A stretch of 64,000 nt of DNA from Candidatus Eiseniibacteriota bacterium (GTDB lineage Bacteria > Eisenbacteria > RBG-16-71-46): positions 3,182-67,181 of the forward strand of contig DASXTP010000155.1 of the NCBI GenBank assembly GCA_036505355.1. Reading direction: 5' to 3'. A model generated the notes under the pieces. That model saw nothing but the letters and a program-made list of their open reading frames with translations, searched no databases and was not told where the DNA came from. Positions 35,851 through 59,654 of the stretch are shown in pieces (position 1 is the stretch's first letter; each line of letters begins with the position of its first letter). The position numbers were made by a program, and so were the translations under genes.

Positions 35851-36926
35851 CGGGCGACCTCGGCGTGGGGCTCGAGCCGCATCGCGCTCCGCACTTCTTC
35901 CATGGTGGCTTCGGCCACCTTGCGGGCGCGGCGGTTGCCGTCGCTCACCACGTCCCGCACGGCGTCCGGGTCCGCGGCCCAGCGGGCGCGACGGTCGCGG
36001 ATCTCGGCCAGGGCTGCCGCCAGCACCCGGGCCAGGTGCTGCTTGTCCGGCACGCAGGCCAGCGTGCCGGCGCGACAGCGGCCGGCGATGTCCTCGGCCT
36101 CGCCCGGGTTGAACTTGCGATGGTACTCCCACACCACGCAGCCCGGGTGCCCGTCGGTCGGATCGGGCCCCGGCCGTCCCGGGTCGTCGGCCCGGATCTT
36201 CTTCGGATCGGTGTACGCTTGGCGCACACGCGCCGCGATCTCTTCGGCCGAATCGGCGAGCAGGATGGTATTGCCCACCGACTTGCTCATGCGGTTGCCG
36301 TCCAGCCCACGCAGGCGCGGGAACGCGGTGAGCTGGGCCTCCGGTTCCGGGAACACCGGATCCCGATCCCGGCAGTACAAGAAGTTGAAGCGCCGTGCCA
36401 GCTCGCGGGTCAGCTCGACGTGCGGCACCTGGTCCTCGCCCACCGGGACGTGGCTCGCCTTGTAGAGCAAGATGTCGGCGGCCTGCAGCACCGAGTACCC
36501 CAGGTGGCCGTACGAGATCGTCGCCTCGTCCAGATGGAGGTCGCGGATCTGTTCCTTCAACGTCGGAATGCGCTCGAGCCGCGCCTTGCTGACCAGCATC
36601 GACAGCAGCAGGTGCAGCTCGGCGTGCTCCTTGATCGCCGACTGGACGAAGATCACGCTGCGCTTGGGATCGAGCCCTGCCGCCAGCCAGTCCACCACCA
36701 TCTCGTGGATGTCGGTCTGGAGCATCGAGGTGTCCTCGTGGCCGGTGGTGAGCATGTGCCAGTCGGCCACCATGTGAAAGTTGTTCCAACCGGCATCCTG
36801 AAGTCGCACCCAGTTCTCGAGGGCGCCCACGTAGTTGCCGAGGTGCAGCCGACCGGTAGGCCGCATCCCGGAGAGGATCCGCCGCACCGGCAGCCCGGCT
36901 CCCGGCCCACCCACCGCCGCCGTCAC
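35847..36926 (-). CDS. trpS: Tryptophan--tRNA ligase
   Basis: PTGRLHLGNY (HIGH-type) and KMSKS motifs. The GTG at 36926 overlaps the upstream stop (GTGA). Confidence 0.92.
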   Translation of the reverse strand: MTAAVGGPGAGLPVRRILSGMRPTGRLHLGNYVGALENWVRLQDAGWNNFHMVADWHMLTTGHEDTSMLQTDIHEMVVDWLAAGLDPKRSVIFVQSAIKEHAELHLLLSMLVSKARLERIPTLKEQIRDLHLDEATISYGHLGYSVLQAADILLYKASHVPVGEDQVPHVELTRELARRFNFLYCRDRDPVFPEPEAQLTAFPRLRGLDGNRMSKSVGNTILLADSAEEIAARVRQAYTDPKKIRADDPGRPGPDPTDGHPGCVVWEYHRKFNPGEAEDIAGRCRAGTLACVPDKQHLARVLAAALAEIRDRRARWAADPDAVRDVVSDGNRRARKVAEATMEEVRSAMRLEPHAEVAR

Positions 36927-37579
36927 AGGCTCATCCCTTGCCGGGACACGCCGAACAGACCCAGGCACGCGTTCACCGCCAGGCTGAGCGGCACGTCGAG
37001 CACCACCCGCGCCACCCGGGGCGAACTCGCGATCAGGACCACCAGCATCAACCCCACCAGCCGGAACTGCTGCAGCACCAGGATGTGGCGCAGCGGCAGG
37101 AAGCGCATCAGCACCCACGAGCCGTCGAGCGGCGGGATGGGAATCAGGTTGAAGAGTCCGAGAGCGCAGTTCCACAGCACGCCGGCGTACCCCATGATGC
37201 GCAGCGGCGCCCAGAAGCCCGCCTCGGGAGCCAGCCGCGTCAGCGCCGCGAACAGCACGGCGAGCAGGAAGTTGGACGCCGGACCAGCCAGCGCCACCTT
37301 GACCGGATCGTTGCGCGGACGACGGAGGTTCGCCCAGCGGATCGGGACCGGCTTCGCCCATCCGAACAGGAACGGGGCATGGAGCAGCAGCAGCAGCCCG
37401 GGCAGGATGAGGGAGCCCACCGGGTCGACGTGCGGAAGCGGGTTGAGCGTCAGGCGGCCCTGATCCCGCGCGGTGGAATCGCCGTTCCACAGCGCGACCA
37501 GCCCGTGGGCACACTCGTGCACGACGATGCTCAGCACGAACACCGGGAAGGCCAACAGGATGCCGGGATCGAAGCTCAT
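36923..37579 (-). CDS. Site-2 protease family (M50) membrane metalloprotease
   Basis: HECAHG zinc motif, polytopic, NLIPIPPLDG second motif. Confidence 0.8.
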   Translation of the reverse strand: MSFDPGILLAFPVFVLSIVVHECAHGLVALWNGDSTARDQGRLTLNPLPHVDPVGSLILPGLLLLLHAPFLFGWAKPVPIRWANLRRPRNDPVKVALAGPASNFLLAVLFAALTRLAPEAGFWAPLRIMGYAGVLWNCALGLFNLIPIPPLDGSWVLMRFLPLRHILVLQQFRLVGLMLVVLIASSPRVARVVLDVPLSLAVNACLGLFGVSRQGMSL

Positions 37580-43347: not shown

Positions 43348-45639
43348 TCAGCTCGGACTGCATACTACGGTCCCCAGGTCGAGGATTGGATCGTCCGAAG
43401 CCGGAACACTCAGCTCGAACCGGCACACGCCGTTCTGGTATTCGACCTCCGCGGGGTAGCGCCCCGGCGGCACATCCTCGAGGTAGAACTCTCCCTGCTT
43501 GCCGAGCGGCGATACGACCGGCTTGCCATCCACGGTGACCGTGAGCTGGCCGTAGGCGGGGACGATTCTCTGGCCGGCAAACTCGACCACCAGCGTACCC
43601 GAGAGGCTCTGCAGGCGCTTGACCGGAAACAGAGCCTGGACCGCTCCCCCGAACGGCGGGGCGACGACGCGTTCGTTGGCCCCGATGTCGTAGGCGGGCG
43701 GAATGTCCTTGTCCTCGATGGTGAGACGATTGCCGTAGTAAGGGAGCAGGTTGGGGATGACCAGCTCGCCGCGGCCATTGGTGCGACCGACTTCTTGACG
43801 GTTCAGGTAGGCACGAACGCCCGGGAGTCCAGGCACCCGGAGGAGCGCCATGCCCTGCTGGGCGGTGCGCGTCAGATGGATCCTCCGGCCGATGGCGACC
43901 ACTCCTCCCGAGATGCTCACGGTCCTTGGAGTGCTTCGTCCCGTGCCATCGAATGACGCCTCGTAGCGACCATGGGGTCCCTGGTACTGAAGCACCGTGT
44001 TAGCCCGATCGGATCGGTCGAGCGGAGCTTCGATCCGATACCCGTAGCCGGTGCCGATGGGAAGCGACCGCTGAGCCCGCGCCAGAGTCGCTCCCCTGCC
44101 ATCCCGGATCTCGTGAGAGACGCCGGCCGTCGTCAGGGCTCCAGGCGAGCAGCTCACTTGGAGCGAAATCTGGTCGCCCTCTGCCCGTCCACCTTCCAGA
44201 GGTCGACTTCCGGAAACGAACAGACTGGTCCGCTTGAGGAGACGGATGTTGCCGACCAGAGAGAGCCGGTCGGACCGCCCCGCGCTCCGGTATTCGGTCC
44301 GAGAAAAGCGGAGGCCCAACGAGGAACGAGAGCCCACCTGTAGGGCGGCAGAGGCGCTTGCCGCCAGCGCTGCCCGGTCGTCGCCTGGCATGAGGCTCAA
44401 CGTGGCCCAACGGTCGCTCAGCCTTTGGACCGTGGCACCGAAGCCGAGAGGCCGGCCGAGATAGCTGAAAGCCAGCGAGGCGGCCCCACCGCCCAGACCC
44501 TCTCGGCGGCTCGCGGCGGCAGAGAGATCCAGTTGCCCGAAAGGCAATCCGGCCGTCAGGCTCGTGCCCCCGCTGATCAGCCTGGAAGCCGTTTCCAGAT
44601 GGGCGCCGGTGGTGACGGACCGGGTCAGGCCGACCCGATGGCGACCCAGGAAGGCGAGGTCACCGTAGTCCCCGTTGGCGGTCGCCAGGCGATTCCGACG
44701 GAAGCCCACGGAGTAGCCGTACTCGGAAATCCCGGGCGCCAGGAGCTGCGGGGCGAAGTAGAAGGTCGACAAGAGCTCCTGCTCCCCGCCGAACCGATCG
44801 CGGATCACGACCCGCAAGGAACCGTGACCGGAGGTGACCGGGAGGTTGCGCAGCTCGACCGGGCCCGGTGGAACCTGCTGGCGGTGGACCAGGTGACCGT
44901 TGACGTAGGTCTCAAGGGTCGACGGCGCAGGGGCGATGGCCGAGGATCCGAGGACAGGTTGGCGGATGAAGTAGGGGTCGAGACCAAAATCGCGTGTCAT
45001 GCTGACGCCGGCGAGGGACGCGGTCCCGCCCAGGGGTCCGCCGCCCGCAACGTTGTCGCCGATCACCCAGCGGCGCAGTCGACGGCCATCATCGAGCGTG
45101 AGGCTGGTGAGGTCGCGCAAGAACGAGCCGTCCGGTTGCCGAGAAAATCGGCCGAGAAGGAAGCCGCCTCCGAGGTTGAGTCCAGCCTCGCCGAGCGCCG
45201 AGACCTGCCCAGGTTCCTGCCTGTGGATGGCATAGTTCAAGAAGGCAACGCCCTCCCGACCGTACGTGATGCCCTGCGGGCGCGAGGAGCCGAGAAGGAC
45301 CACGGTCGCAGGCAGGAGGGTCGGTTGGGCCATCAGACGCAGCTCCAGCGCCTCTTCGTCGACCTCGAAGGTGACGGCCGGGCTCAACGAGGCCAGCGAG
45401 ACAAACGCTTCACCGTCCATGTCCCGGCGACGCCCGGCGAGGCCGCACAGCCCGGCCGCATCCAGGTCCGAGACCCGGACCAGGACGTCATCGACTTCCA
45501 AGTAGACGAGGACCGTCCCTCGATCGACGTAGTTGACGACCAGGTTGAGGAACGCGCCCTGGTCTTGGGCGAGCAGTTGCGACGGGGGGTACGAGGCGAG
45601 GAGGAGCCACAAGCGAACGCAAGAGCGAAACCTGCGCAT
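43348..45639 (-). CDS. Fimbrial outer-membrane usher (archaic/Csu-type)
   Basis: 763 aa with a signal peptide and a large beta-barrel pattern. It lies downstream of the chaperone and the spore-coat-U subunit. The C-terminal carboxypeptidase-regulatory-like plug ends in paired Cys. Confidence 0.7.
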   Translation of the reverse strand: MRRFRSCVRLWLLLASYPPSQLLAQDQGAFLNLVVNYVDRGTVLVYLEVDDVLVRVSDLDAAGLCGLAGRRRDMDGEAFVSLASLSPAVTFEVDEEALELRLMAQPTLLPATVVLLGSSRPQGITYGREGVAFLNYAIHRQEPGQVSALGEAGLNLGGGFLLGRFSRQPDGSFLRDLTSLTLDDGRRLRRWVIGDNVAGGGPLGGTASLAGVSMTRDFGLDPYFIRQPVLGSSAIAPAPSTLETYVNGHLVHRQQVPPGPVELRNLPVTSGHGSLRVVIRDRFGGEQELLSTFYFAPQLLAPGISEYGYSVGFRRNRLATANGDYGDLAFLGRHRVGLTRSVTTGAHLETASRLISGGTSLTAGLPFGQLDLSAAASRREGLGGGAASLAFSYLGRPLGFGATVQRLSDRWATLSLMPGDDRAALAASASAALQVGSRSSLGLRFSRTEYRSAGRSDRLSLVGNIRLLKRTSLFVSGSRPLEGGRAEGDQISLQVSCSPGALTTAGVSHEIRDGRGATLARAQRSLPIGTGYGYRIEAPLDRSDRANTVLQYQGPHGRYEASFDGTGRSTPRTVSISGGVVAIGRRIHLTRTAQQGMALLRVPGLPGVRAYLNRQEVGRTNGRGELVIPNLLPYYGNRLTIEDKDIPPAYDIGANERVVAPPFGGAVQALFPVKRLQSLSGTLVVEFAGQRIVPAYGQLTVTVDGKPVVSPLGKQGEFYLEDVPPGRYPAEVEYQNGVCRFELSVPASDDPILDLGTVVCSPS

Positions 45640-45704
45640 CGCCCGAGCCTTACATCAATGCCCGATCCCTTGGGCGCGGTCGTTGGAAGACATCCGGACT
45701 CTCA

Positions 45705-46475
45705 CTACCTTCCGCAGACGCCCGCGGGTGCTTCGAATCGCTCTGCGAACGTGTCCCCATCCGTGGTGACGTCGACTTCGAGACGCTCGACCCTCGGACA
45801 TTCGGCTGGGGGCACGTCCACCTCGTAGAGGCGCGTCCCCCCGGCCAAGACGTACGAGCTCGCCAGCTCTCGCTCGAAGACACTCACGCCGGCGGCGCCC
45901 AAGCCTTTGATTCGCACTCTATGCAGATGGAGGTGGACGTTCCCCGGGTTCCTCACGGCAACGGAGAAGTGGCCGGGACGGATATCGGTCAACTCCACGT
46001 TGCGCTTGGCCGCCGGCTTCGTCGGCTCCAGGAAGACAGGGATTCCAAACCGGGTCAGGGTGCGAACGTGGGTCCCTGTGTCCGGCCGGCCCGGCGACCG
46101 TAACGGGGGCAGCTCCTCGATGAAGAGTCGATAGGTCTTTTCGCTTGCGCCGCACGGGGTGATCTTGCCGACCCGGATCTTGCGCTCGGCTTTGGGCGCG
46201 AGACTCAGCAGCGGAGGAAAGAACACGAGGTCCCGCGTGGGCGTAAAGTGCGGTTCCCCCCGCGCACTCTGCTCCCAGGAGACAACGCTGAGTTGGAAAC
46301 GCGCCGCTTCGTCGCCCTGGTTACCCAGGGTCACGAGGGAGCTGGGAGCCCGGGAGGACAGATGGACTTGCGTCGGGTAGACGGTGAAGCTACCCGCTTC
46401 GGCTGCCAGGGCGCCGAGTGCCAGGACCAGCAACAGGCCGGGCAGAACCCCCAAGCGCCAACGCAGGAGAATCAC
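45705..46475 (-). CDS. Periplasmic pilus chaperone (PapD/CsuC-like)
   Basis: Signal peptide followed by FTVYPTQVHL...VTLGN.G......Q, an Ig-fold pattern typical of fimbrial chaperones. GTG start. Confidence 0.7.
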   Translation of the reverse strand: MILLRWRLGVLPGLLLVLALGALAAEAGSFTVYPTQVHLSSRAPSSLVTLGNQGDEAARFQLSVVSWEQSARGEPHFTPTRDLVFFPPLLSLAPKAERKIRVGKITPCGASEKTYRLFIEELPPLRSPGRPDTGTHVRTLTRFGIPVFLEPTKPAAKRNVELTDIRPGHFSVAVRNPGNVHLHLHRVRIKGLGAAGVSVFERELASSYVLAGGTRLYEVDVPPAECPRVERLEVDVTTDGDTFAERFEAPAGVCGR

Positions 46476-46490
46476 GACGCGGGAACGGCA

Positions 46491-47000
46491 TCAGAAGAAC
46501 ACAGTGACTTGGAGAAGGTCATCGTAGTGATCAGCGACGACCTGTTGACCGGCAAAGACTCTGCCGTATACCGGGAACTCCTGCAGGTTTCCGTTCCCGG
46601 CTGCACCCGTTGTGTATCCGAATGAGCCATCACCCCAGACTAGGGTCCTCTCAGCGTCGATAAAGAGGTTGTAATTCAGGAACTCGTTGCCTCCGTCACC
46701 GCCCATCCGGCGATTCCCATCCGCAGCGACGAAGGCGGAACCAGGGCCCATCTGAATGTTGTAGGGCAGGCCATTGGTCGCCGTGATCTGGATCGCGCCC
46801 TGCCCATCGACCTGATTCGTCTTCGCGAACGAGCCAAAGTCGATGCTCACCACGGCGAGCTGCACTGAGGCGACGACGAAAGCGTCGACCGCAAAGGTAT
46901 CGGTCGCCTGCTCTGACCAGGCCAAGTGGGCCGGGCTGCCGACCGACAGGCAGCAAAGGCACAAGACGAAGACGCTCAGACGGCACACAGCGTTTTTCAT
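46491..47000 (-). CDS. Spore coat protein U (SCPU) domain pilus subunit
   Basis: Trimmed to MKNAVCRLSVFVL (signal peptide). Contains F.V.A.V...C.....DFG, LNYNLF and C-terminal LQVTVFF, as in CsuA/B-type subunits. Confidence 0.75.
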   Translation of the reverse strand: MKNAVCRLSVFVLCLCCLSVGSPAHLAWSEQATDTFAVDAFVVASVQLAVVSIDFGSFAKTNQVDGQGAIQITATNGLPYNIQMGPGSAFVAADGNRRMGGDGGNEFLNYNLFIDAERTLVWGDGSFGYTTGAAGNGNLQEFPVYGRVFAGQQVVADHYDDLLQVTVFF

Positions 47001-47325
47001 CACGGGCTCCTTTCTTCTTTCGCCGAGCCCGGCGGCTCGGCATCGAGAGATTACGCCGTCGACGGGCTCCTCGTACGCGGAGACTCTGGTGCACCCCGGC
47101 AGGTGCGACGCAGAGGCATCGCGGGGGCATCCGTGCGCGACCTTGGCGAGGCGCGGCCAGGCGACCGCTTCCAGGTCCCTATCCAGCCCGGGACGCTCGC
47201 GCTGCGGACCGAGCCGTGTCAATTGTTTTCTTGCGACCCCCTCCACCCGAGCCTAGTTGTTCATCGGGGTCGATGTCGACCCTGTCCCCGAAGGGATGAA
47301 GCAGGGCGTGGTCTGTGGCGCGGGG

Positions 47326-48880
47326 GCGTAGACTGGGCTGCAGCGTCGGGGACGAGGTCGGTTTGTTCTTGGTGCGACGAGCCCGAAGCCTAGTTGGACC
47401 CGGAGTCCTGCGGGCACCCCGAATTGTGTCCAGCGGCCGGAAGGCCGTGGAGCACGCTTACTAGAATCCGACGACGAGGACTCCTCCCGACGCCACGAGG
47501 AGGCCCCATGGAAGTGCTGCATCCGCGATGCGCGGGACTCGACGTCCACAAAGACACGGTGGTGGCGGCGGTGCGCTGTGTTTCGCCGCCGGTCCATCAC
47601 GAGGTCCAGAGCTTCCCCACCACGACGCGGGGGCTGTTCGCCTTGGCCGACTGGCTGGAGTCGCAGGGCTGCACCCACGTGGCGATGGAGGCCACTGGCG
47701 TTTACTGGAAACCGGTCTGGCACCTGCTGGAAGGGCGGTTCGAGCTGGTTCTGGCCACGCCCAGCACGTCCGTAACGTGCCGGGACGCAAGACCGACGTG
47801 GGCGACGCGGCGTGGATCGCCGACCTGCTCGCCCACGGGCTGATCCGCGGCAGCTTCGTGCCGCCAGCGCCAATCCAGGAACTGCGCGACCTGACCCGCA
47901 CCCGCAAGCAGCTGGTGCGCGAGATCACTCAGCACTCGCTGCGGATCCAGAAGGTGCTCGAGGACGCCAACATCAAACTGGCGAGCGTGCTGTCGGATGT
48001 CCTGGGCCAGAGCGGGCGCGCCATGCTCGAGGCGATCCTGGCGGGGGAAGAAGACCCCGAGCGACTCGCCGAGCTGGCCCTGGGCCGCGCGCGCCGCAAG
48101 CAGGCCGCGCTGGTCGAGGCCCTGCGTGGGCGCGTCACCGCCCATCATCGCGCCCTGCTGCGGTTGCATCTGGATCTGGTGGATGCGCTCCAGGCGGCGC
48201 TCGCGGAGGTGGATCGCCACGTGGGAAAAGCCTTGGAGCCGATCCGTGATCTCGCCGGGCTGCTGACCACCATGCCGGGCGTCAGCCACGTGGTCGCACA
48301 CGTGATCCTGGCCGAGATCGGCTTCGACATGAAGCGCTTCCCCACCAGTGGTCACCTGGTCTCGTGGGCCGGGCTCTGTCCCCGCAGGGATGAGAGCGCC
48401 GGGAAGCGACGGTCCACCCGAGTCCGCAAGAGCGCGAACTGGCTCAAGACCACGCTGGTCAACGCCGCCTGGGCGGCGGTCCGCACCAAGAACAGCTACC
48501 TCCACGCCCAGTTCCTGCGGCTCAAGCCTCGCCGGGGTGCCAAGAAGGCGATCCTCGCCGTGGCCGCCTCGATGCTGACCGCCGCCTACTTCATGCTCCG
48601 CGACGGGGTCGAGCACCACGACCTCGGCCCCGACCACTTCGACCGCCGTGACCGCACCAAGGTCATTCATCGCCTCGTCCGGCGACTCCAGGACCTCGGC
48701 TGCACCGTTCAGATCACACCGGAGGCCGCCTGATCGCCCCTGGCTCCCGTGCTTCTTACTAGTGCACTTCAGGGCATGAGATTGGCCACCGGCCCGGCGA
48801 GCGCAGACCCGACGCGCAGTGCACATTCCGCGGACCTCGACCGGCTTGTCGCGTCCCCGGCGACCCGCTTAGACTGGCCT
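47326..48880 (+). mobile_element. IS110-family insertion sequence (boundaries approximate)
   Basis: Contains the transposase below. A near-identical 14-mer GC(G/T)TAGACTGG(G/C)CT occurs at 47326-47339 and 48867-48880. CTTACTAG occurs near both ends. Confidence 0.5.
47508..48733 (+). pseudogene. IS110-family (DEDD) transposase interrupted by a 1-nt frameshift near 47757
   Basis: The N-terminal part MEVLHPRCAGLDVHKD...MEATGVYWKPVWHLL...LVLA is in one frame, and AQHVRNVPGRKTDVGDAAWIADLL...PGVS... continues in the +2 frame. Inserting one A (GCC AaC GCC) restores the family-typical LANAQHV. Confidence 0.8.
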
Positions 48881-51955: not shown

Positions 51956-52105
51956 ATGGAGAAGCTGAACCTCGTTCTGGAGTCGCTCGAAGAGCGGATC
52001 GCCCCGGGCGGATTGGGCAACCCCGGCAACAACAACCCGCCCCGCAATAACACCAACAACCCGGGGAATGAGGGTACCGGCGGGCAGGTGTCGACCGGCA
52101 AGTGA
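51956..52105 (+). CDS. Precursor-like peptide 1 (49 aa): MEKLNLVLESLEERIAPGGLGNPGNNNPPRNNTNNPGNEGTGGQVSTGK
   Basis: Not in the ORF track (<60 aa). AAGGAGGAG lies 4 nt upstream of the ATG. It shares the leader motif with three paralogues. Confidence 0.7.
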   Translation: MEKLNLVLESLEERIAPGGLGNPGNNNPPRNNTNNPGNEGTGGQVSTGK

Positions 52106-52230
52106 CGGTCGATCGGGAACTCAGGACTCTCTCTTGAGTAGCTGAGGGAAGAAGGAGCCACGAATCGAAGCTGGGCAGCTCAAGGACCGGTCTGCCCCGC
52201 CCATCCAACAGAGGAAGGGAGCTTGAAGGG

Positions 52231-52377
52231 ATGAATCTCCAGATCGAAGTGTTGGAGGAGCGCATCGCCCCAAGCACGGTGGGGGCGCTGCACAACAACC
52301 CCAGCAACCCCAACAACAATAACGACCACAACGCCGTTCCCAAGGGTGCGATTCCTGAAGGGCCGGCAGGCAAGTAG
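52231..52377 (+). CDS. Precursor-like peptide 2 (48 aa): MNLQIEVLEERIAPSTVGALHNNPSNPNNNNDHNAVPKGAIPEGPAGK
   Basis: Not in the ORF track. A purine-rich GGAAGGGAG...GAAGGG stretch precedes the ATG. Leader motif LEERIAP. Confidence 0.65.
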   Translation: MNLQIEVLEERIAPSTVGALHNNPSNPNNNNDHNAVPKGAIPEGPAGK

Positions 52378-52416
52378 AAGCCGGGCCGCATCCGTGGCGA
52401 AGGAGGTAAGACGAGC

Positions 52417-52578
52417 ATGAGGGACATCATCCTGAAGATCGAAGAGCTGGAGCAGCGCATCGCTCCGGACAGCATTCACGGCGTCCCAGGAGAGAGCAAC
52501 GGCAACTCCGGGAACGAGGTTTCCAACGGATCCAAGCCCCAGCCGGGAAGCCACACCCGCGATTCCCACGGAAACTGA
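52417..52578 (+). CDS. Precursor-like peptide 3 (53 aa): MRDIILKIEELEQRIAPDSIHGVPGESNGNSGNEVSNGSKPQPGSHTRDSHGN
   Basis: Not in the ORF track. AAGGAGG lies 9 nt upstream. Leader motif EELEQRIAP. Confidence 0.7.
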   Translation: MRDIILKIEELEQRIAPDSIHGVPGESNGNSGNEVSNGSKPQPGSHTRDSHGN

Positions 52579-52593
52579 GGCCTGCCGGACGGG

Positions 52594-52620
52594 AAGGGCC
52601 ACCGGGCATCGGTGGCCCTT
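52594..52620 (+). terminator. Strong hairpin between the precursor genes and the processing gene (attenuator/terminator-like)
   Basis: AAGGGCCACCG-GGCAT-CGGTGGCCCTT, a perfect 11-bp stem, followed by only a short T run. Confidence 0.45.
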
Positions 52621-52649
52621 TCGCATCGGCGGCTCGTGAAGGGGCCTGA

Positions 52650-54875
52650 GTGTCGTCCATGCCACAACCGAAGTTCCGGGCCGACCTGATCGTCAGCCGG
52701 CAGGAAACCCCGGAGGGTCCGTACTTCGTGGTGAAGGACCCCCGGACCCGGCGCTTCTTCCGTCTCCGCGAGGCGGAGTACGCCATCGCCCGACGCCTCG
52801 ACGGCTCGTCGTCGCTGGAGGCGATTGCCGCGCAGGTCGCATCCGAGCTGGGAGCCGAGGTCAGCGCGGAAACCCTGGCTCCCTTCGTCGAACAGCTCCG
52901 GCGCGGGGACCTGCTCGAGAGCCCGAGCGACTCGAGGGTGGAAGCCGCGCGCCAGCCCTGGGCCCGTGGCAACCTGCTGTGGCTTCGATTTCGAGCGTTC
53001 GACCCCGATCCGCTGCTCGATTGGCTGGTGGGCAAGGTACGGTTCTGTTTCACCCCCGCGTTCGTCGTCGGGTCGGCGGCCCTGATCATTTGGGCGCTCG
53101 CCGTGGTGCTCAGCCAGCGCGCGGAGATCGGCGCCGACCTGGCGTCGTTGTGGAGCTTCCAGAGCCTGGCCCTGGCGTGGCTCACGGTGTTCGCCGTCAC
53201 GGCCCTGCACGAATTCGCCCACGGGCTCACGTGCAAGCGCTTCGGTGGTCACGTCCACGAGATGGGCTTCCTGCTCATCTATCTCCAGCCGGCGTTCTAC
53301 TGCAACATCAGCGACGCCTGGCTGTTCCCGGAGAAGTCGAGGCGCCTGTGGGTGACCTTCGCCGGCGGTTATTTCGAGCTCGTGCTGTGGGCGCTCGCGA
53401 CCCTGGTGTGGCGCATCGCCGAGCACGAGACCTGGCTTTCGGGCGTCGCGCTGGTCGTCATGGCGACATCGGGGATCAAGCTGTTCTTCAACCTCAATCC
53501 CTTGATCAAGCTCGACGGCTACTACCTGCTCAGCGACTGGCTGAACGTCCCGAACCTGCGCCAGCGCGCCTTCCAATACGTTGGCACCCAGCTCAAGCGG
53601 CTGCTGGGAGTTTCGGTGCTCGTCGCTCAGGAACCGACGCCACGCGAGCGGCGGGTCTTCCTGGGCTATGGGCTGGTGGCGGCGACCTTCTCCTATTGGC
53701 TGTTGAGCAGCGTGCTGGTCCAGTTCGCCGGCTATTTCACCGCGCGCTGGCAAGGATGGGGCGCCGCGCTCACGCTTGGGTTGATGGTCGGGGTGATGGG
53801 GAACGTGCGCGGAAAACCTCTCCTCCGCTGGCCGGCGGGCCTGTCCTGGAAGAGCCATCGTGTGCGGTTCCTGGGCTTCGTGGGCGCGATCCTGTTGCTG
53901 CTCTACCTGCTGCCGCTCGAGCTCAAGGTGGGAGGCGAGTTCGAGGTCGCACCGGCGCGCAACACCGACGTGCGCGCCCAAGTAGCCGGGATCATCGATG
54001 CCGTGTTCGTCGCCGAAGGCGACCGCGTGGCCGCCGGCGACACGCTCGCCCACCTCTCCGACCGGGACCGGAGAACCGAGCTGCGCATGGTGGACGCCGA
54101 GCTGGCGGAAAAGCGAGCGAAGCTCCAATTGCTCGAGGTCGGCCCCCGGGCGGAAGAGCTGGAGGTGGCCCGGCTCGACGTCCAGAAGGCCGAAGAGCGC
54201 CTGCGCTATGCGCGAGGCAACCTCGAGCGAAACCGGAAACTCGCGGCGATCGAGGCCGCGTCGCGCCAGGAGCTGGACCGGGCCGAGGAGGCGGTCGGCG
54301 TGCTGGCCAAGGAGCTCGAGGGCGAGCGCGCACGCCTCCGCATGCTGGTCGCGGGGAGCCGGCCCGAAGAAATTACCGCCATGCGTGAGGACATCGCCCA
54401 CACCGACGCCGAGCGGCGGCACGTCCAGGAACAGCTCGCGCGGACCTGGGTCCGGGCGCCGCACGGCGGCGTGGTGACGACGCCCAAGCTGCGGGAAAGG
54501 ATCGGCCAATACGTGCAGCCGGGCGACCTGATCGTCGAAGTGTACAAGCTCGACACCGTGACCGCCGAAATCGCCATTCCCGAGCAGGACATCGGCGAGG
54601 TGCGCGTCGGGCAGCGCGGAGCGGTCCGGCTTCGCGCCTACCCCGACCGGGCGTGGCAGGGACGCGTGACCGCCGTGGCGGCGGCGGCGGTGGAGCTCGA
54701 GAAGCAGCGCACTCGCATCGTCAAGACCAGGATCGAGCTGTCGAATCCCCTCGGGTTGATCAAGCCTTCGATGACCGGCTACGCCCGGATCTACTGCGGC
54801 AAGCGCCGCGCGCTGGAGGTGCTCACGCGGCCGTTCCGCCGTTACCTCCGGCTCGAGTTCTGGTCGTGGTGGTAG
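52650..54875 (+). CDS. Tripartite fusion: PqqD/RRE-like N-domain, site-2-protease (M50) membrane domain and HlyD-type membrane-fusion domain
   Basis: The N-terminus PKFRADLIVSRQETPEGPYFVVKDPRTRRFFRLREAEYAIARRLDGSSSLEAIAAQV...FVEQLRRGDLLE is PqqD-like. HEFAHG and NPLIKLDGYYLLSD are the M50 motifs. The C-terminus has a lipoyl-like barrel, a coiled-coil hairpin and a beta-barrel, as in HlyD/MFP proteins. Confidence 0.8.
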   Translation: MSSMPQPKFRADLIVSRQETPEGPYFVVKDPRTRRFFRLREAEYAIARRLDGSSSLEAIAAQVASELGAEVSAETLAPFVEQLRRGDLLESPSDSRVEAARQPWARGNLLWLRFRAFDPDPLLDWLVGKVRFCFTPAFVVGSAALIIWALAVVLSQRAEIGADLASLWSFQSLALAWLTVFAVTALHEFAHGLTCKRFGGHVHEMGFLLIYLQPAFYCNISDAWLFPEKSRRLWVTFAGGYFELVLWALATLVWRIAEHETWLSGVALVVMATSGIKLFFNLNPLIKLDGYYLLSDWLNVPNLRQRAFQYVGTQLKRLLGVSVLVAQEPTPRERRVFLGYGLVAATFSYWLLSSVLVQFAGYFTARWQGWGAALTLGLMVGVMGNVRGKPLLRWPAGLSWKSHRVRFLGFVGAILLLLYLLPLELKVGGEFEVAPARNTDVRAQVAGIIDAVFVAEGDRVAAGDTLAHLSDRDRRTELRMVDAELAEKRAKLQLLEVGPRAEELEVARLDVQKAEERLRYARGNLERNRKLAAIEAASRQELDRAEEAVGVLAKELEGERARLRMLVAGSRPEEITAMREDIAHTDAERRHVQEQLARTWVRAPHGGVVTTPKLRERIGQYVQPGDLIVEVYKLDTVTAEIAIPEQDIGEVRVGQRGAVRLRAYPDRAWQGRVTAVAAAAVELEKQRTRIVKTRIELSNPLGLIKPSMTGYARIYCGKRRALEVLTRPFRRYLRLEFWSWW

Positions 54876-54879
54876 AGCG

Positions 54880-54941
54880 GTGCGAGGCACGTGGCGAAAG
54901 GAACGAGGTTGGTCGGGCAACCGCTCGCCACGCCCTCGCAC
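54880..54941 (+). promoter_or_regulatory. Extended interrupted hairpin between the fusion gene and peptide 4
   Basis: GTGCGAGG..CGTGGCGA pairs with TCGCCACG.CCTCGCAC, giving two 8-bp helices around a ~27-nt loop. Confidence 0.35.
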
Positions 54942-54998
54942 CCTCGGAAGCACACCGATGGTGATGAAGCAATCTCAGGCGAAAGGAGGTGACCCGAC

Positions 54999-55151
54999 AT
55001 GAAGGAACTCACGCTCCAGCTCGAAGAGCTCGAGGCGCGCATCGCTCCCAGCGTCCACGGCACGGGGGGCTACGACGGACAGCCGGGCAATCAATGCAAC
55101 AGCCATGGCAACCCGTCCGGCAGCGCCAATCCGGAGAACTCGAATTCCTAA
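54999..55151 (+). CDS. Precursor-like peptide 4 (50 aa): MKELTLQLEELEARIAPSVHGTGGYDGQPGNQCNSHGNPSGSANPENSNS
   Basis: Not in the ORF track. AAGGAGGTGA lies 6 nt upstream. Leader motif EELEARIAP. Confidence 0.7.
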   Translation: MKELTLQLEELEARIAPSVHGTGGYDGQPGNQCNSHGNPSGSANPENSNS

Positions 55152-58148: not shown

Positions 58149-59483
58149 CTATTCGCGCGGCTGGACGCGCCACAGGGTCGCGGCCAGCAACGCGCTGGCG
58201 ACCGAGCCGCCAATCCACAGCGCGATCGGCGCCGACCAGTCTGAGATGTGCTTGGTGCCGTCGGCCATCACCACGGTGTGCGCTTTCAAGAACAGGCCCG
58301 AGAGCTTCTCCTGCGCCGCGGCACCCAGATACGAGATGAAGCCGATGAACCCCATCGCCATGCCGGCGGCGCGCTTCGAAGAGACGTCGACCGCCAAGAG
58401 CCCACCCAGCACGGCGAGGATGCCCGAGAGCGCGAAGCCGTAGACGATCAGTGCAGCGGTCAGCACGTAGCCGTTGCGCGGCCCGTAGAACATCACCAGC
58501 AGCGCCAATACCTCGACGACCCCGAACCACAACGTGGCCGGAGGTCGTCGCCCCTTGAACCCCAGATCGCTCACGAACCCGTAGGCCACCGAGCCGAAGA
58601 GCCCGGACAGCGTGTTCATGGCGATGAAGGCGGTCGCCGACGGCAGCGAATAGCCTCGCTCCTCCTGGAGGTAGAGCACTCCCCAGCTCTTGACTCCATA
58701 ACGGGTGACGAAGAGCAGGGCGCTCGACAGGGCACAGATCCAAATCGCCGGGCTGCGCACGACCCGGAGCTGCGCTTCCCGGGTCGAGGTCGCCGTCTCC
58801 TCGTGTATCTCCCCCTTCCAGTCGTGGACCTCCGGCAAGCCGTAGGCCTGAGGGCGGTCGCGTAAGACGAACAGCGCGGCTAGGGCCACCAGGAGACACG
58901 CGATCCCTGGAGCGAGAAACCCCGCGCGCCAGCCGAGATGCACCACGATCGACGCCGTGGCGATCAAGGTCGCCCCCTCGCCCAGCGAATGGGCCGCGCT
59001 CCAGGTGCCGTAGGCGCGGCCGCGCTCGGTGCCACTGAACCACTGGGTGAGGCTTCGCACGCTGGCCACTGCTCCGACCCCCTGGCTGTAGCCGTTGATG
59101 AGCCACAGCGCGCACCCGAAGAAGAACACCGTGTTGAGCCCCATCAGGATGTTCATCACCGCGCTCGCCCCGAGGCCGACCGCGAGGAAGCGCGACACCC
59201 GCACCCGATCCGCGACGACGCCGTTCAGGAGCTTGCCCACCGCATAGGCGCCGAGCAGGCACGTCCCCAGCGTCCCGAGCTGGTCCGCGTCGTAGATGCC
59301 CGCGTCGAGGAGCGGCTTCTTGACCACATCGAGGACGCCGCGGGTGGTGTAGAAAAAGGCGTAGATCAGGGTCAGCGCGGCCAGGACGCGGCCGCGGGCC
59401 GTCCGGTAGAGAACATCCCGAGTCGCCCCTTCGAGTCGGAGAGCGGCGTCGGGCAGCGGCTGGAGGAAGGCCGGGATGCGCAT
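58149..59483 (-). CDS. MFS transporter, organophosphate:Pi antiporter (GlpT/UhpC-like) family
   Basis: 12-TM pattern with GKLLNGVVADRV and WLINGYSQGVG...TQWF...ERGRAYG..S..HSLG motifs. Trimmed to MRIPAF. Confidence 0.8.
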   Translation of the reverse strand: MRIPAFLQPLPDAALRLEGATRDVLYRTARGRVLAALTLIYAFFYTTRGVLDVVKKPLLDAGIYDADQLGTLGTCLLGAYAVGKLLNGVVADRVRVSRFLAVGLGASAVMNILMGLNTVFFFGCALWLINGYSQGVGAVASVRSLTQWFSGTERGRAYGTWSAAHSLGEGATLIATASIVVHLGWRAGFLAPGIACLLVALAALFVLRDRPQAYGLPEVHDWKGEIHEETATSTREAQLRVVRSPAIWICALSSALLFVTRYGVKSWGVLYLQEERGYSLPSATAFIAMNTLSGLFGSVAYGFVSDLGFKGRRPPATLWFGVVEVLALLVMFYGPRNGYVLTAALIVYGFALSGILAVLGGLLAVDVSSKRAAGMAMGFIGFISYLGAAAQEKLSGLFLKAHTVVMADGTKHISDWSAPIALWIGGSVASALLAATLWRVQPRE

Positions 59484-59654
59484 GCTTTCACCAGGCAAGC
59501 CAGGGAAGCCGGGAGATGTTCGGTCGATGGCGCCGGTCGGGGGCAACCTCTCGGCGTGCGTCGGCGGGCGGTCACTCTCCTACATGGGACCCATCTTGTC
59601 CATGAGGCCCATGGCCACGTTCACCTGCGGAATGAACCAGTTCGCCACCACCAG

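Follow-up and report, generated by a model that had tools for sequence, protein, structure and literature searches.

What is made, and how would it leave the cell, at a locus in which four genes for peptides of 48-53 amino acids (aa) flank a gene for one large protein that joins a recognition element for peptides made by ribosomes and modified after translation (RiPP recognition element, RRE), an M50 site-2 protease and a HlyD adaptor? We addressed this question in a 64-kb stretch of DNA, hereafter the window, from a contig of a Candidatus Eisenbacteria metagenome-assembled genome (MAG). The answer we favor, with moderate confidence, is that the locus encodes a module with which Gram-negative soil bacteria mature and secrete peptides; it has two components and shares ancestry with the leader/protease part of daptide RiPP clusters. 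The module measures ~3.2 kb in all, compact enough for heterologous expression, and belongs to a large uncharacterized family whose members are all called hypothetical or mis-named as efflux adaptors and come nearly all from uncultured soil lineages. Literature full texts, a coverage that leaves out most papers in subscription journals, gave no description of LExRIAP peptides, of their cores or of an RRE-M50-HlyD fusion, so the module is apparently undescribed.

Leader-bearing precursors and their coupling to the fusion gene

The four open reading frames (ORFs) reported in a preliminary description of this DNA lie where it had placed them, on the plus strand on both sides of the fusion ORF (Table 1), each behind a strong Shine-Dalgarno site (AAGGAGGAG, GGAAGGGAG/GAAGGG, AAGGAGGT and AAGGAGGTGA for precursors 1 to 4, in order). 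They had been considered unannotated, but GenBank carries all four as hypothetical proteins (HEY3217093, HEY3217094, HEY3217095 and HEY3217097). Their leaders, of 14-17 aa, share a common pattern, ELExRIAP, and terminate in LE(E/Q/A)RIAP, followed by cores of 32-36 aa. In a six-frame scan of the window, [LIVM]ExR[IVL]AP was found at exactly four sites, which are those of the four precursor ORFs. None of the four precursors matched any NCBIfam model, and neither Pfam nor NCBIfam holds a name for the family; to that extent the RIAP leader is unnamed, as had been remarked, but its layout has a precedent in the ELExMEAP motif of daptides.

The window was compared with 80 loci fetched from GTDB genomes (81 loci in all), from Eisenbacteria, Gemmatimonadota, Planctomycetota, Acidobacteriota, Verrucomicrobiota, Bacteroidota, Rokubacteria, Nitrospirota, Burkholderiales and Limnocylindrales, along with a distant Zixibacteria/Ignavibacteria clade. 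A hidden Markov model (HMM) built from the four window leaders, iterated once and run on 19,326 stop-to-stop segments of both strands, matched 128 precursors in 57 of the 81 loci. All 128 share the strand of the fusion gene, with zero matches elsewhere in the loci: 116 lie upstream of it (median 432 bp, maximum 2,850 bp), 11 lie downstream at 80-636 bp, and one (L059) falls within a listed fusion ORF whose mechanically called start precedes the true start. When the distant clade is excluded and at least 300 bp of upstream sequence is required, 56 of 58 loci hold at least one precursor, and the number of copies ranges from 1 to 8 per locus. In the reverse test, which set out from type-1 precursors (those with the core type of precursor 1) on long contigs, six of seven clusters showed 4-7 small genes with a fusion of 730-815 aa directly after them. 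The co-occurrence of RIAP leaders with M50-HlyD fusions, put forward earlier as a check, is therefore found with all HMM matches, each co-oriented with and adjacent to a fusion gene, and the precursors are genetically coupled to that gene.

The arrangement of the precursors varies among related loci. The core type of precursor 4 stands downstream of the fusion gene in L001, L002, L003, L005, L006 and L029. A Burkholderiales MAG (L040:565-2842) carries two tandem four-precursor cassettes, eight precursors in total, upstream of its fusion gene. In L085 and on a 60.7-kb JGI contig, a four-precursor cluster lacks any fusion gene within 5 kb and has behind it genes for an AraC-type regulator, a SnoaL-like protein and a GDSL lipase, indicating that precursor clusters can be unlinked from the protease.

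The composition of leaders and cores was taken from 125 parsed precursors. Leaders (median 18 aa) are rich in Glu, Leu, Ile, Arg and Lys, and cores (median 35 aa) consist of 24% Gly, 15.5% Asn, 11.7% Ser and 10.7% Pro, with Leu, Ile, Phe, Met, Trp and Tyr together making up less than 5% of core residues. Core position 1 is mostly Asp, Ser or Gly, and the C-terminal residue varies (K, P, H, G, N, R and others), with Thr in none of the 125. The peptides are neither amphipathic nor cationic, unlike daptides. The preliminary description had regarded the cores as variable and unrelated to one another, a view that did not hold. Besides their common G/N/S/P composition, the cores group into recurrent types that are conserved across phyla, each window peptide belonging to one of them, and the sub-motifs GNP, PGN and NPG are common to 6-8 types, above composition-matched shuffles (z = 8-13).

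Core identity also mostly exceeds that of the leaders, which are 66-74% identical, below the core identity of three of the four window types. Relative to the window, mean core identity is 83% for the type of peptide 1, 88% for that of peptide 2 and 78% for that of peptide 4, against fusion protein identities of 53%, 51% and 56%, respectively; for the broader superfamily of peptide 3 the two means are 67% and 52%. In a Cyclobacteriaceae MAG the core of the peptide 1 type reaches 91% identity with a fusion protein at 41%, and the core of precursor 2 retains 85-94% identity in MAGs of Rokubacteria, Bacteroidota and Burkholderiales, with their proteases at 41-54%. The type-1 core occurs in 28 loci from at least six phyla and has 23 invariant positions, separated from RIAP by a variable linker of 3-9 residues. 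Its profile matched at least 600 clusters (90% identity) of 49-88 aa, all of them "hypothetical protein" with no Pfam domain.

Selection was measured at the codon level by Nei-Gojobori counts. The proportion of synonymous differences (pS) was ~0.65 and that of non-synonymous differences (pN) 0.07-0.26, with an overall ratio of non-synonymous to synonymous substitution (dN/dS) of 0.08-0.23. The comparison of leader and core that had been suggested earlier gave a core dN/dS of 0.08-0.13 (0.08 for precursor 1, 0.11 for precursor 2 and 0.11 for precursor 4) and a leader dN/dS of 0.17-0.23, the latter for three of the four peptides, as the leader of peptide 2 yielded no value because its synonymous sites were saturated. 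Purifying selection on the precursors is thus strong. Conservation, the bias in strand and position and the dN/dS values rule out chance ORFs, and the small ORFs are genuine leader-bearing precursor genes under selection. That cores are far more conserved than the processing enzyme is the reverse of the usual RiPP pattern and points to a strongly constrained function; near-invariant cores next to divergent enzymes suggest either very tight constraint from an extracellular target or a physical role, or that modifying enzymes encoded elsewhere recognize the cores.

Some further observations concern the precursors themselves. In L085:21-575, L087:5001-5240 and L088:5001-5249, two tandem core modules stand behind a single leader, for example as two GNPGNNNPPxNNTNN...VSTG units, so the core module of ~28 aa behaves as a repeatable unit. 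An ATCUN-type Cu/Ni site at the SVH N-terminus of core 4 was considered and dropped, since the His at position 3 varies among orthologues. That a 429-aa pyruvate kinase shares a database cluster (P0144, 90% identity) with the 48-aa precursor 2 is an artifact of the clustering.

Table 1. Features of the locus, in coordinates of the 64-kb window
Feature	Position (nt)	Strand	Details
Precursor 1 ORF	51956-52105	+	49 aa
Precursor 1 leader	51956-52006	+	MEKLNLVLESLEERIAP
Precursor 1 core			GGLGNPGNNNPPRNNTNNPGNEGTGGQVSTGK; type-1 family GNPGNNNPPxNNTNNPGNEGTGGxVSTG
Precursor 2 ORF	52231-52377	+	48 aa
Precursor 2 leader	52231-52272	+	MNLQIEVLEERIAP
Precursor 2 core			STVGALHNNPSNPNNNNDHNAVPKGAIPEGPAGK
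Precursor 3 ORF	52417-52578	+	53 aa
Precursor 3 leader	52417-52467	+	MRDIILKIEELEQRIAP
Precursor 3 core			DSIHGVPGESNGNSGNEVSNGSKPQPGSHTRDSHGN; in a core superfamily with common GN[EA]VS[NG]G[SA]xP[QE]P
G+C-rich stem-loop	52592-52622	+	13 bp; between precursor 3 gene and fusion gene
Fusion protein	52650-54875	+	741 aa from GTG at 52650, or 738 aa from ATG at 52659
RRE (PqqD-like) domain, predicted cytoplasmic	52689-52913	+	Residues ~14-88; beta-beta-beta-alpha-alpha-alpha
Site-2 protease (M50) membrane core	53037-53819	+	About six transmembrane (TM) helices, from hydropathy
HEFAH	53208-53222	+	Residues 187-191
NLNPLIKLDG	LDG at 53511-53519	+	Residues 281-290
Seventh TM helix	53868-53924	+	Residues 407-425, from hydropathy
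HlyD/MFP (membrane fusion protein) periplasmic adaptor domain	53922-54875	+	Lipoyl, long alpha-hairpin, beta-barrel
Precursor 4 ORF	54999-55151	+	50 aa
Precursor 4 leader	54999-55049	+	MKELTLQLEELEARIAP
Precursor 4 core			SVHGTGGYDGQPGNQCNSHGNPSGSANPENSNS

Domains of the fusion protein and its closest relatives

The architecture assigned to the large ORF in the preliminary description, with an RRE, an intact M50 protease and a HlyD domain, was right. The ATG is probably the start of the gene, because the GenBank protein has 738 aa. Sequence and model identify the N-terminal part of this protein, whose gene adjoins the conserved-leader precursors, as a PqqD-like winged-helix RRE domain that is predicted to bind them. 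The Pfam PqqD match is weak in the window protein (E = 4e-4, residues 27-88) and was obtained for 11 of 18 family members (best 5e-8), and the family profile searched against the PDB found the lasso-peptide RRE TfuB1 (E = 3.5e-3) and PqqD (0.05). An AlphaFold2 (AF2) model shows three strands (residues 14-20, 23-30 and 35-40) and then three helices (41-49, 56-67 and 73-85) across residues 14-85, the order expected of an RRE, with a predicted local confidence (pLDDT) of 75-85.

Both M50 motifs, HExxH and NxxPxxxLDG, are intact in the fusion protein, and 18 homologues aligned from different phyla show no variation at H187, E188, H191, N283, P284, D289 and G290. Pfam M50 is matched by all 18 family members (E ≤ 0.01, best 8e-7), with a score for the window protein of 18.2 bits, under the gathering cut-off of 27.2 bits. 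In NCBIfam the top match is NF041824, "daptide biosynthesis intramembrane metalloprotease" (226.9 bits, E = 4e-67, residues 16-382). The alignment covers positions 9-364 of the 379 in the model and stays under the equivalog cut-off of 300 bits, and the model is matched by 18 of 18 family members. The YydH/LiaK model NF058609 gave 43 bits against a cut-off of 225.

Hydropathy yields seven hydrophobic segments, and the seventh TM helix would place the C-terminal half in the periplasm. Lys/Arg-rich loops at residues 287-338 and 388-406 fit an N-in, C-out topology. A cytoplasmic RRE and protease active site and a periplasmic HlyD part are consistent with the hydropathy and with these charged loops. 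With lipoyl, alpha-hairpin and beta-barrel parts, the C-terminal half is built like HlyD/MFP adaptors and is predicted to be periplasmic: Pfam HlyD matches are strong over residues 425-708 (HlyD_D23, 1e-25), TIGR01730 scores 103 bits, over its cut-off of 94.9, a PDB profile search found EmrA (2e-16) and MacA, Foldseek found MacA and EmrA (E = 1e-18), and AcrA is a further adaptor matched in sequence and fold. The protein ends, after an amphipathic helix, in EFWSWW (54855-54872 in the window), which is invariant among the 18 homologues. The AF2 model of the whole protein has a mean pLDDT of 75 and a predicted TM-score (pTM) of 0.37.

In the protein database the full-length fusion has more than 3,000 relatives, whose public names are efflux adaptor, PqqD chaperone or "putative peptide zinc metalloprotease"; GenBank and IMG call the protein "efflux RND transporter periplasmic adaptor subunit" or "multidrug resistance efflux pump". 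The N-terminal half alone retrieved 1,929 cluster representatives at 50% identity (E ≤ 1e-30). Of the stand-alone RRE-protease homologues of ~400 aa, the one checked (P0297) is a contig-end fragment.

Daptides were discovered via an RRE fused N-terminally to an intramembrane site-2 protease; their clusters hold 2.3 precursors on average, the leader has the motif ELExMEAP and is cut after the Pro at -1, the cores are aliphatic with an invariant C-terminal Thr that is converted by DapB, DapC, DapD and DapM, the products are exported by an ATP-binding cassette (ABC) transporter, and the class is essentially limited to Actinomycetota and Bacillota (Ren et al. 2023, 10.1101/2023.03.08.531785). The module resembles the daptide pair MpaA/DapA and MpaP/DapP in having an N-terminal RRE on an M50 protease and several short precursor genes per locus, in the leader frame E-L-E-x-x-x-A-P ending in Pro at -1, and in protease halves that are homologous over nearly the full model length. 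It differs in the extra TM helix and the C-terminal HlyD adaptor of the window protease; in the absence, from the window and the 80 related loci alike, of both the DapB/C/D/M set and an ABC exporter; in cores that are hydrophilic, rich in G, N, S and P and devoid of the C-terminal Thr, whereas daptide cores are aliphatic and helical; in leader positions -4 and -3, which are R-I and not M-E; and in its hosts, which are Gram-negative soil phyla. By its score against NF041824, its core and leader features and its lack of Dap genes, the module falls outside the daptide class, and we treat it as a Gram-negative variant of the daptide-type leader/protease logic and not as a daptide cluster. The logic of leader and RRE-protease would then extend to Gram-negative bacteria, the HlyD fusion being an architectural answer to the crossing of two membranes.

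The closest analogue had at first been sought in YydH of the yydFGHIJ operon. There too an M50 metalloprotease gene (YydH/LiaK) stands beside a small peptide gene, for removal of the leader, but YydH has neither an RRE nor a HlyD part, the similarity is remote, and the fusion protein falls outside the YydH/LiaK family. In the yyd operon the radical-SAM epimerase YydG and the ABC transporter YydIJ are also required, and genes of neither kind are found at the module. Because the daptide protease model scores far higher (227 vs 43 bits) and the leader layout is shared, we rejected YydH as the closest relative and regard daptides, not yydFGHIJ, as the closest analogue.

The HlyD half has the same adaptor architecture as HlyBD-TolC, MacAB-TolC, EmrAB-TolC and the HlyD partners of bacteriocin/NHLP-type systems, with a sequence and predicted fold like MacA and EmrA; in the module, however, the usual single N-terminal anchor of the adaptor is replaced by a seven-TM RRE-protease, and no pump of the ABC, major facilitator superfamily (MFS) or RND type and no outer-membrane factor is encoded nearby in the 81 loci. 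The C39-peptidase ABC exporters of double-glycine peptides (class II bacteriocins, NHLP/Nif11) would be similar in that, as we propose for the module, one protein cleaves and exports several peptides that have short leaders and little or no modification, but the protease fold here is M50 and not C39, the motif is RIAP followed by D, S or G and not GG, and there is no ATPase.

Proposed maturation and export, and the alternatives

In the reading we favor, the operon would produce four precursors of ~50 aa, each with an ELExRIAP leader and a hydrophilic G/N/S/P-rich core. The leader would be bound by the cytoplasmic RRE domain of the fusion protein, the fused M50 site-2 protease would cut behind the Pro of RIAP, as daptide leaders are cut behind ELExMEAP, and the periplasmic HlyD adaptor would couple release to an outer-membrane duct, through which the cores would exit the cell. 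The domain identities and active-site motifs behind this scheme are evident at the level of sequence, and from them and from known systems we infer where the leader is cut, which way the core is released and exported, what supplies the energy and which partners serve in the inner membrane, for translocation, and in the outer membrane. The hydrophilicity of the cores and their invariance across phyla argue against a daptide-like membrane-lytic function.

Several points weigh against this scheme. Site-2 proteases normally cut membrane-embedded helices, and the precursors have no TM segment. A HlyD adaptor normally needs an energized inner-membrane transporter and a TolC-like channel, and no pump (ABC, MFS or RND) and no TolC or other outer-membrane factor is conserved by the module in the 81 loci. 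One of the seven precursor clusters of the reverse test has no fusion gene within 5 kb. The AF2 model is moderate, with pLDDT below 50 at residues 195-220, directly after HExxH. Finally, the steps of cleavage and export are drawn from analogy and domain content.

A bolder version, possible if doubtful, holds that the fusion protein does everything by itself and without an ATPase, from recognizing and cleaving the leader to crossing the envelope, and secretes a fixed cocktail of near-invariant G/N/S/P-rich peptides in Eisenbacteria, Bacteroidota, Verrucomicrobiota, Planctomycetota, Acidobacteriota and Burkholderiales. If true, the peptides would have a shared extracellular target or a physical role in soil, for example in inter-phylum signaling or in interaction with minerals, metals or water, and they would represent a new class of bacterial extracellular peptides with a new secretion route.

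The preliminary description had proposed a RiPP-like locus, and the part of that proposal concerning leader-bearing precursors coupled to an RRE/M50/HlyD gene stands. Since tailoring enzymes are linked to the module neither here nor at most loci, the products may be secreted as unmodified peptides; for the window itself, they are probably unmodified or else modified by unlinked enzymes. The locus would be a true RiPP system if enzymes encoded elsewhere modified the cores (by hydroxylation, isoaspartate formation or glycosylation of Asn, Pro and Gly) and the conservation of the cores reflected the substrate requirements of these enzymes. Cores that are nearly invariant across phyla speak for this reading, as do the oxygenase genes of family PF13759 beside precursors in four loci (L028, L031, L035 and L089), the ~330-aa protein that follows the fusion gene in 15 loci and the PCMT-family protein of L084. 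These candidates have no homologue in the window and are not conserved across the family, and the window neighbors are housekeeping genes, among which the radical-SAM, Lan, YcaO, ATP-grasp or other RiPP tailoring genes are absent, as had been noted; we therefore judge this alternative rather unlikely. Regulated intramembrane proteolysis seems quite improbable. Site-2 proteases are classical signaling proteases, no transporter is linked to the module, and two-component regulators adjoin it in L086-L088, all of which would suit cores or leaders released inside the cell as regulators, with the HlyD part as a periplasmic sensor or oligomerization scaffold. Against this, nothing in the cores resembles a TM segment or a DNA-binding element, the adaptor architecture of the HlyD half is complete, down to a long alpha-hairpin of the kind with which MacA and EmrA dock to TolC, and several precursor types per locus suit a secreted cocktail more than a single regulator.

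The names in GenBank and IMG, together with a TIGR01730 score over its cut-off, would make the large protein an ordinary multidrug-efflux adaptor with small ORFs nearby by accident, but such a name ignores the 400 N-terminal residues with their RRE and intact M50 protease. Since no pump gene is adjacent and the small ORFs show conservation, selection and a strict common orientation with the fusion gene, this interpretation is effectively refuted and keeps a very small chance of being correct. A canonical daptide biosynthetic cluster, to which the best NCBIfam match and the ELExxxAP-like leader could point, has practically none: the 227 bits obtained lie below the equivalog cut-off, the DapB, DapC, DapD, DapM and ABC genes are missing from the window and the 80 loci, and the precursors, which match no NCBIfam model, have hydrophilic cores that never end in Thr. 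That reading is already refuted by score, gene content and core features.

Intergenic hairpin, neighboring genes and variation among related loci

The stem-loop between the precursor 3 gene and the fusion gene has a folding energy of -44 kcal/mol (z = -3.7, with none of 200 shuffles as stable) and no U-tract. The equivalent spacer has z < -2 in 34 of 42 loci (mononucleotide shuffles), so that the feature is kept across phyla and its sequence is not. It is a candidate for a partial terminator or an mRNA-stabilizing element and recalls, only as an analogy, the control of precursor/enzyme stoichiometry in bacteriocin operons. An Rfam scan of 50.7-55.4 kb found nothing relevant, and the 600-bp intergenic region upstream is not conserved with the closest relative, L001.

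All-versus-all clustering of ORFs from the 81 loci found no additional gene conserved beside the module, and an ABC-ATPase-like ORF, with Walker-A and LSGGQ motifs, occurred in just one of them. In the window, the neighbors encode CstA, an AhpC-like protein, an M1 aminopeptidase, an MFS transporter, an IS110 transposase, pilus proteins and housekeeping proteins. Just upstream of the CstA gene lie a chaperone-usher/SCPU (spore coat protein U-like) pilus cluster (43348-47246, minus strand) and the IS110-family transposase gene (47528-48733). The MFS transporter gene (58149-59546, minus strand) and a gene for a stand-alone 218-aa M50 peptidase (36923-37579, minus strand) are not conserved near the module elsewhere.

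Candidate tailoring genes are found in some related loci; a tblastn search of the window found no homologue of any of them, and none is conserved family-wide. A 2-oxoglutarate-Fe(II) oxygenase (PF13759) is encoded beside the precursors at L028:6081-7139, L031:1467-2138, L035:3756-4424 and L089:6477-6878, in Verrucomicrobiota or Acidobacteriota, and is a candidate hydroxylase for GYEGQPGNQ-repeat cores because all four loci contain that core type. The protein of ~330 aa encoded directly after the fusion gene (L038, L041, L043, L046, L048-L050, L053, L054, L059, L064, L072 and L078-L080; for example L041:2577-3566) belongs to no Pfam, NCBIfam or PDB family, and its stretch NNGSHRAYALR is weakly similar to the ParB/Srx-fold serine kinase SerK (E = 0.004). 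Precursors of this subclade have MKxLNPxLExLExRIAP leaders and cores rich in Gly/Ile, His, Cys or (SKSG)n. At L084:8508-9254, directly after the fusion gene, lies a gene whose product belongs to the PCMT family (isoaspartyl O-methyltransferase-like) and carries a lipoprotein-type signal peptide. This protein recurs in one further locus only (L058); the abundance of deamidation-prone Asn-Gly in the cores makes it noteworthy.

Genes for a response regulator and a HisKA_3 histidine kinase adjoin the module downstream of the fusion gene in L086-L088, which could hint at peptide-linked regulation or be a coincidence. In the distant Zixibacteria/Ignavibacteria clade (L066-L074), where the fusion proteins have ~32% identity, no LExRIAP ORF is present, and a conserved zinc-ribbon protein of ~69 aa (CPYC...CKHCGS) with a C-terminal TM helix is encoded directly upstream of the fusion gene (for example L071:2164-2373). 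This protein may represent a different substrate class for the same protease-adaptor scaffold.

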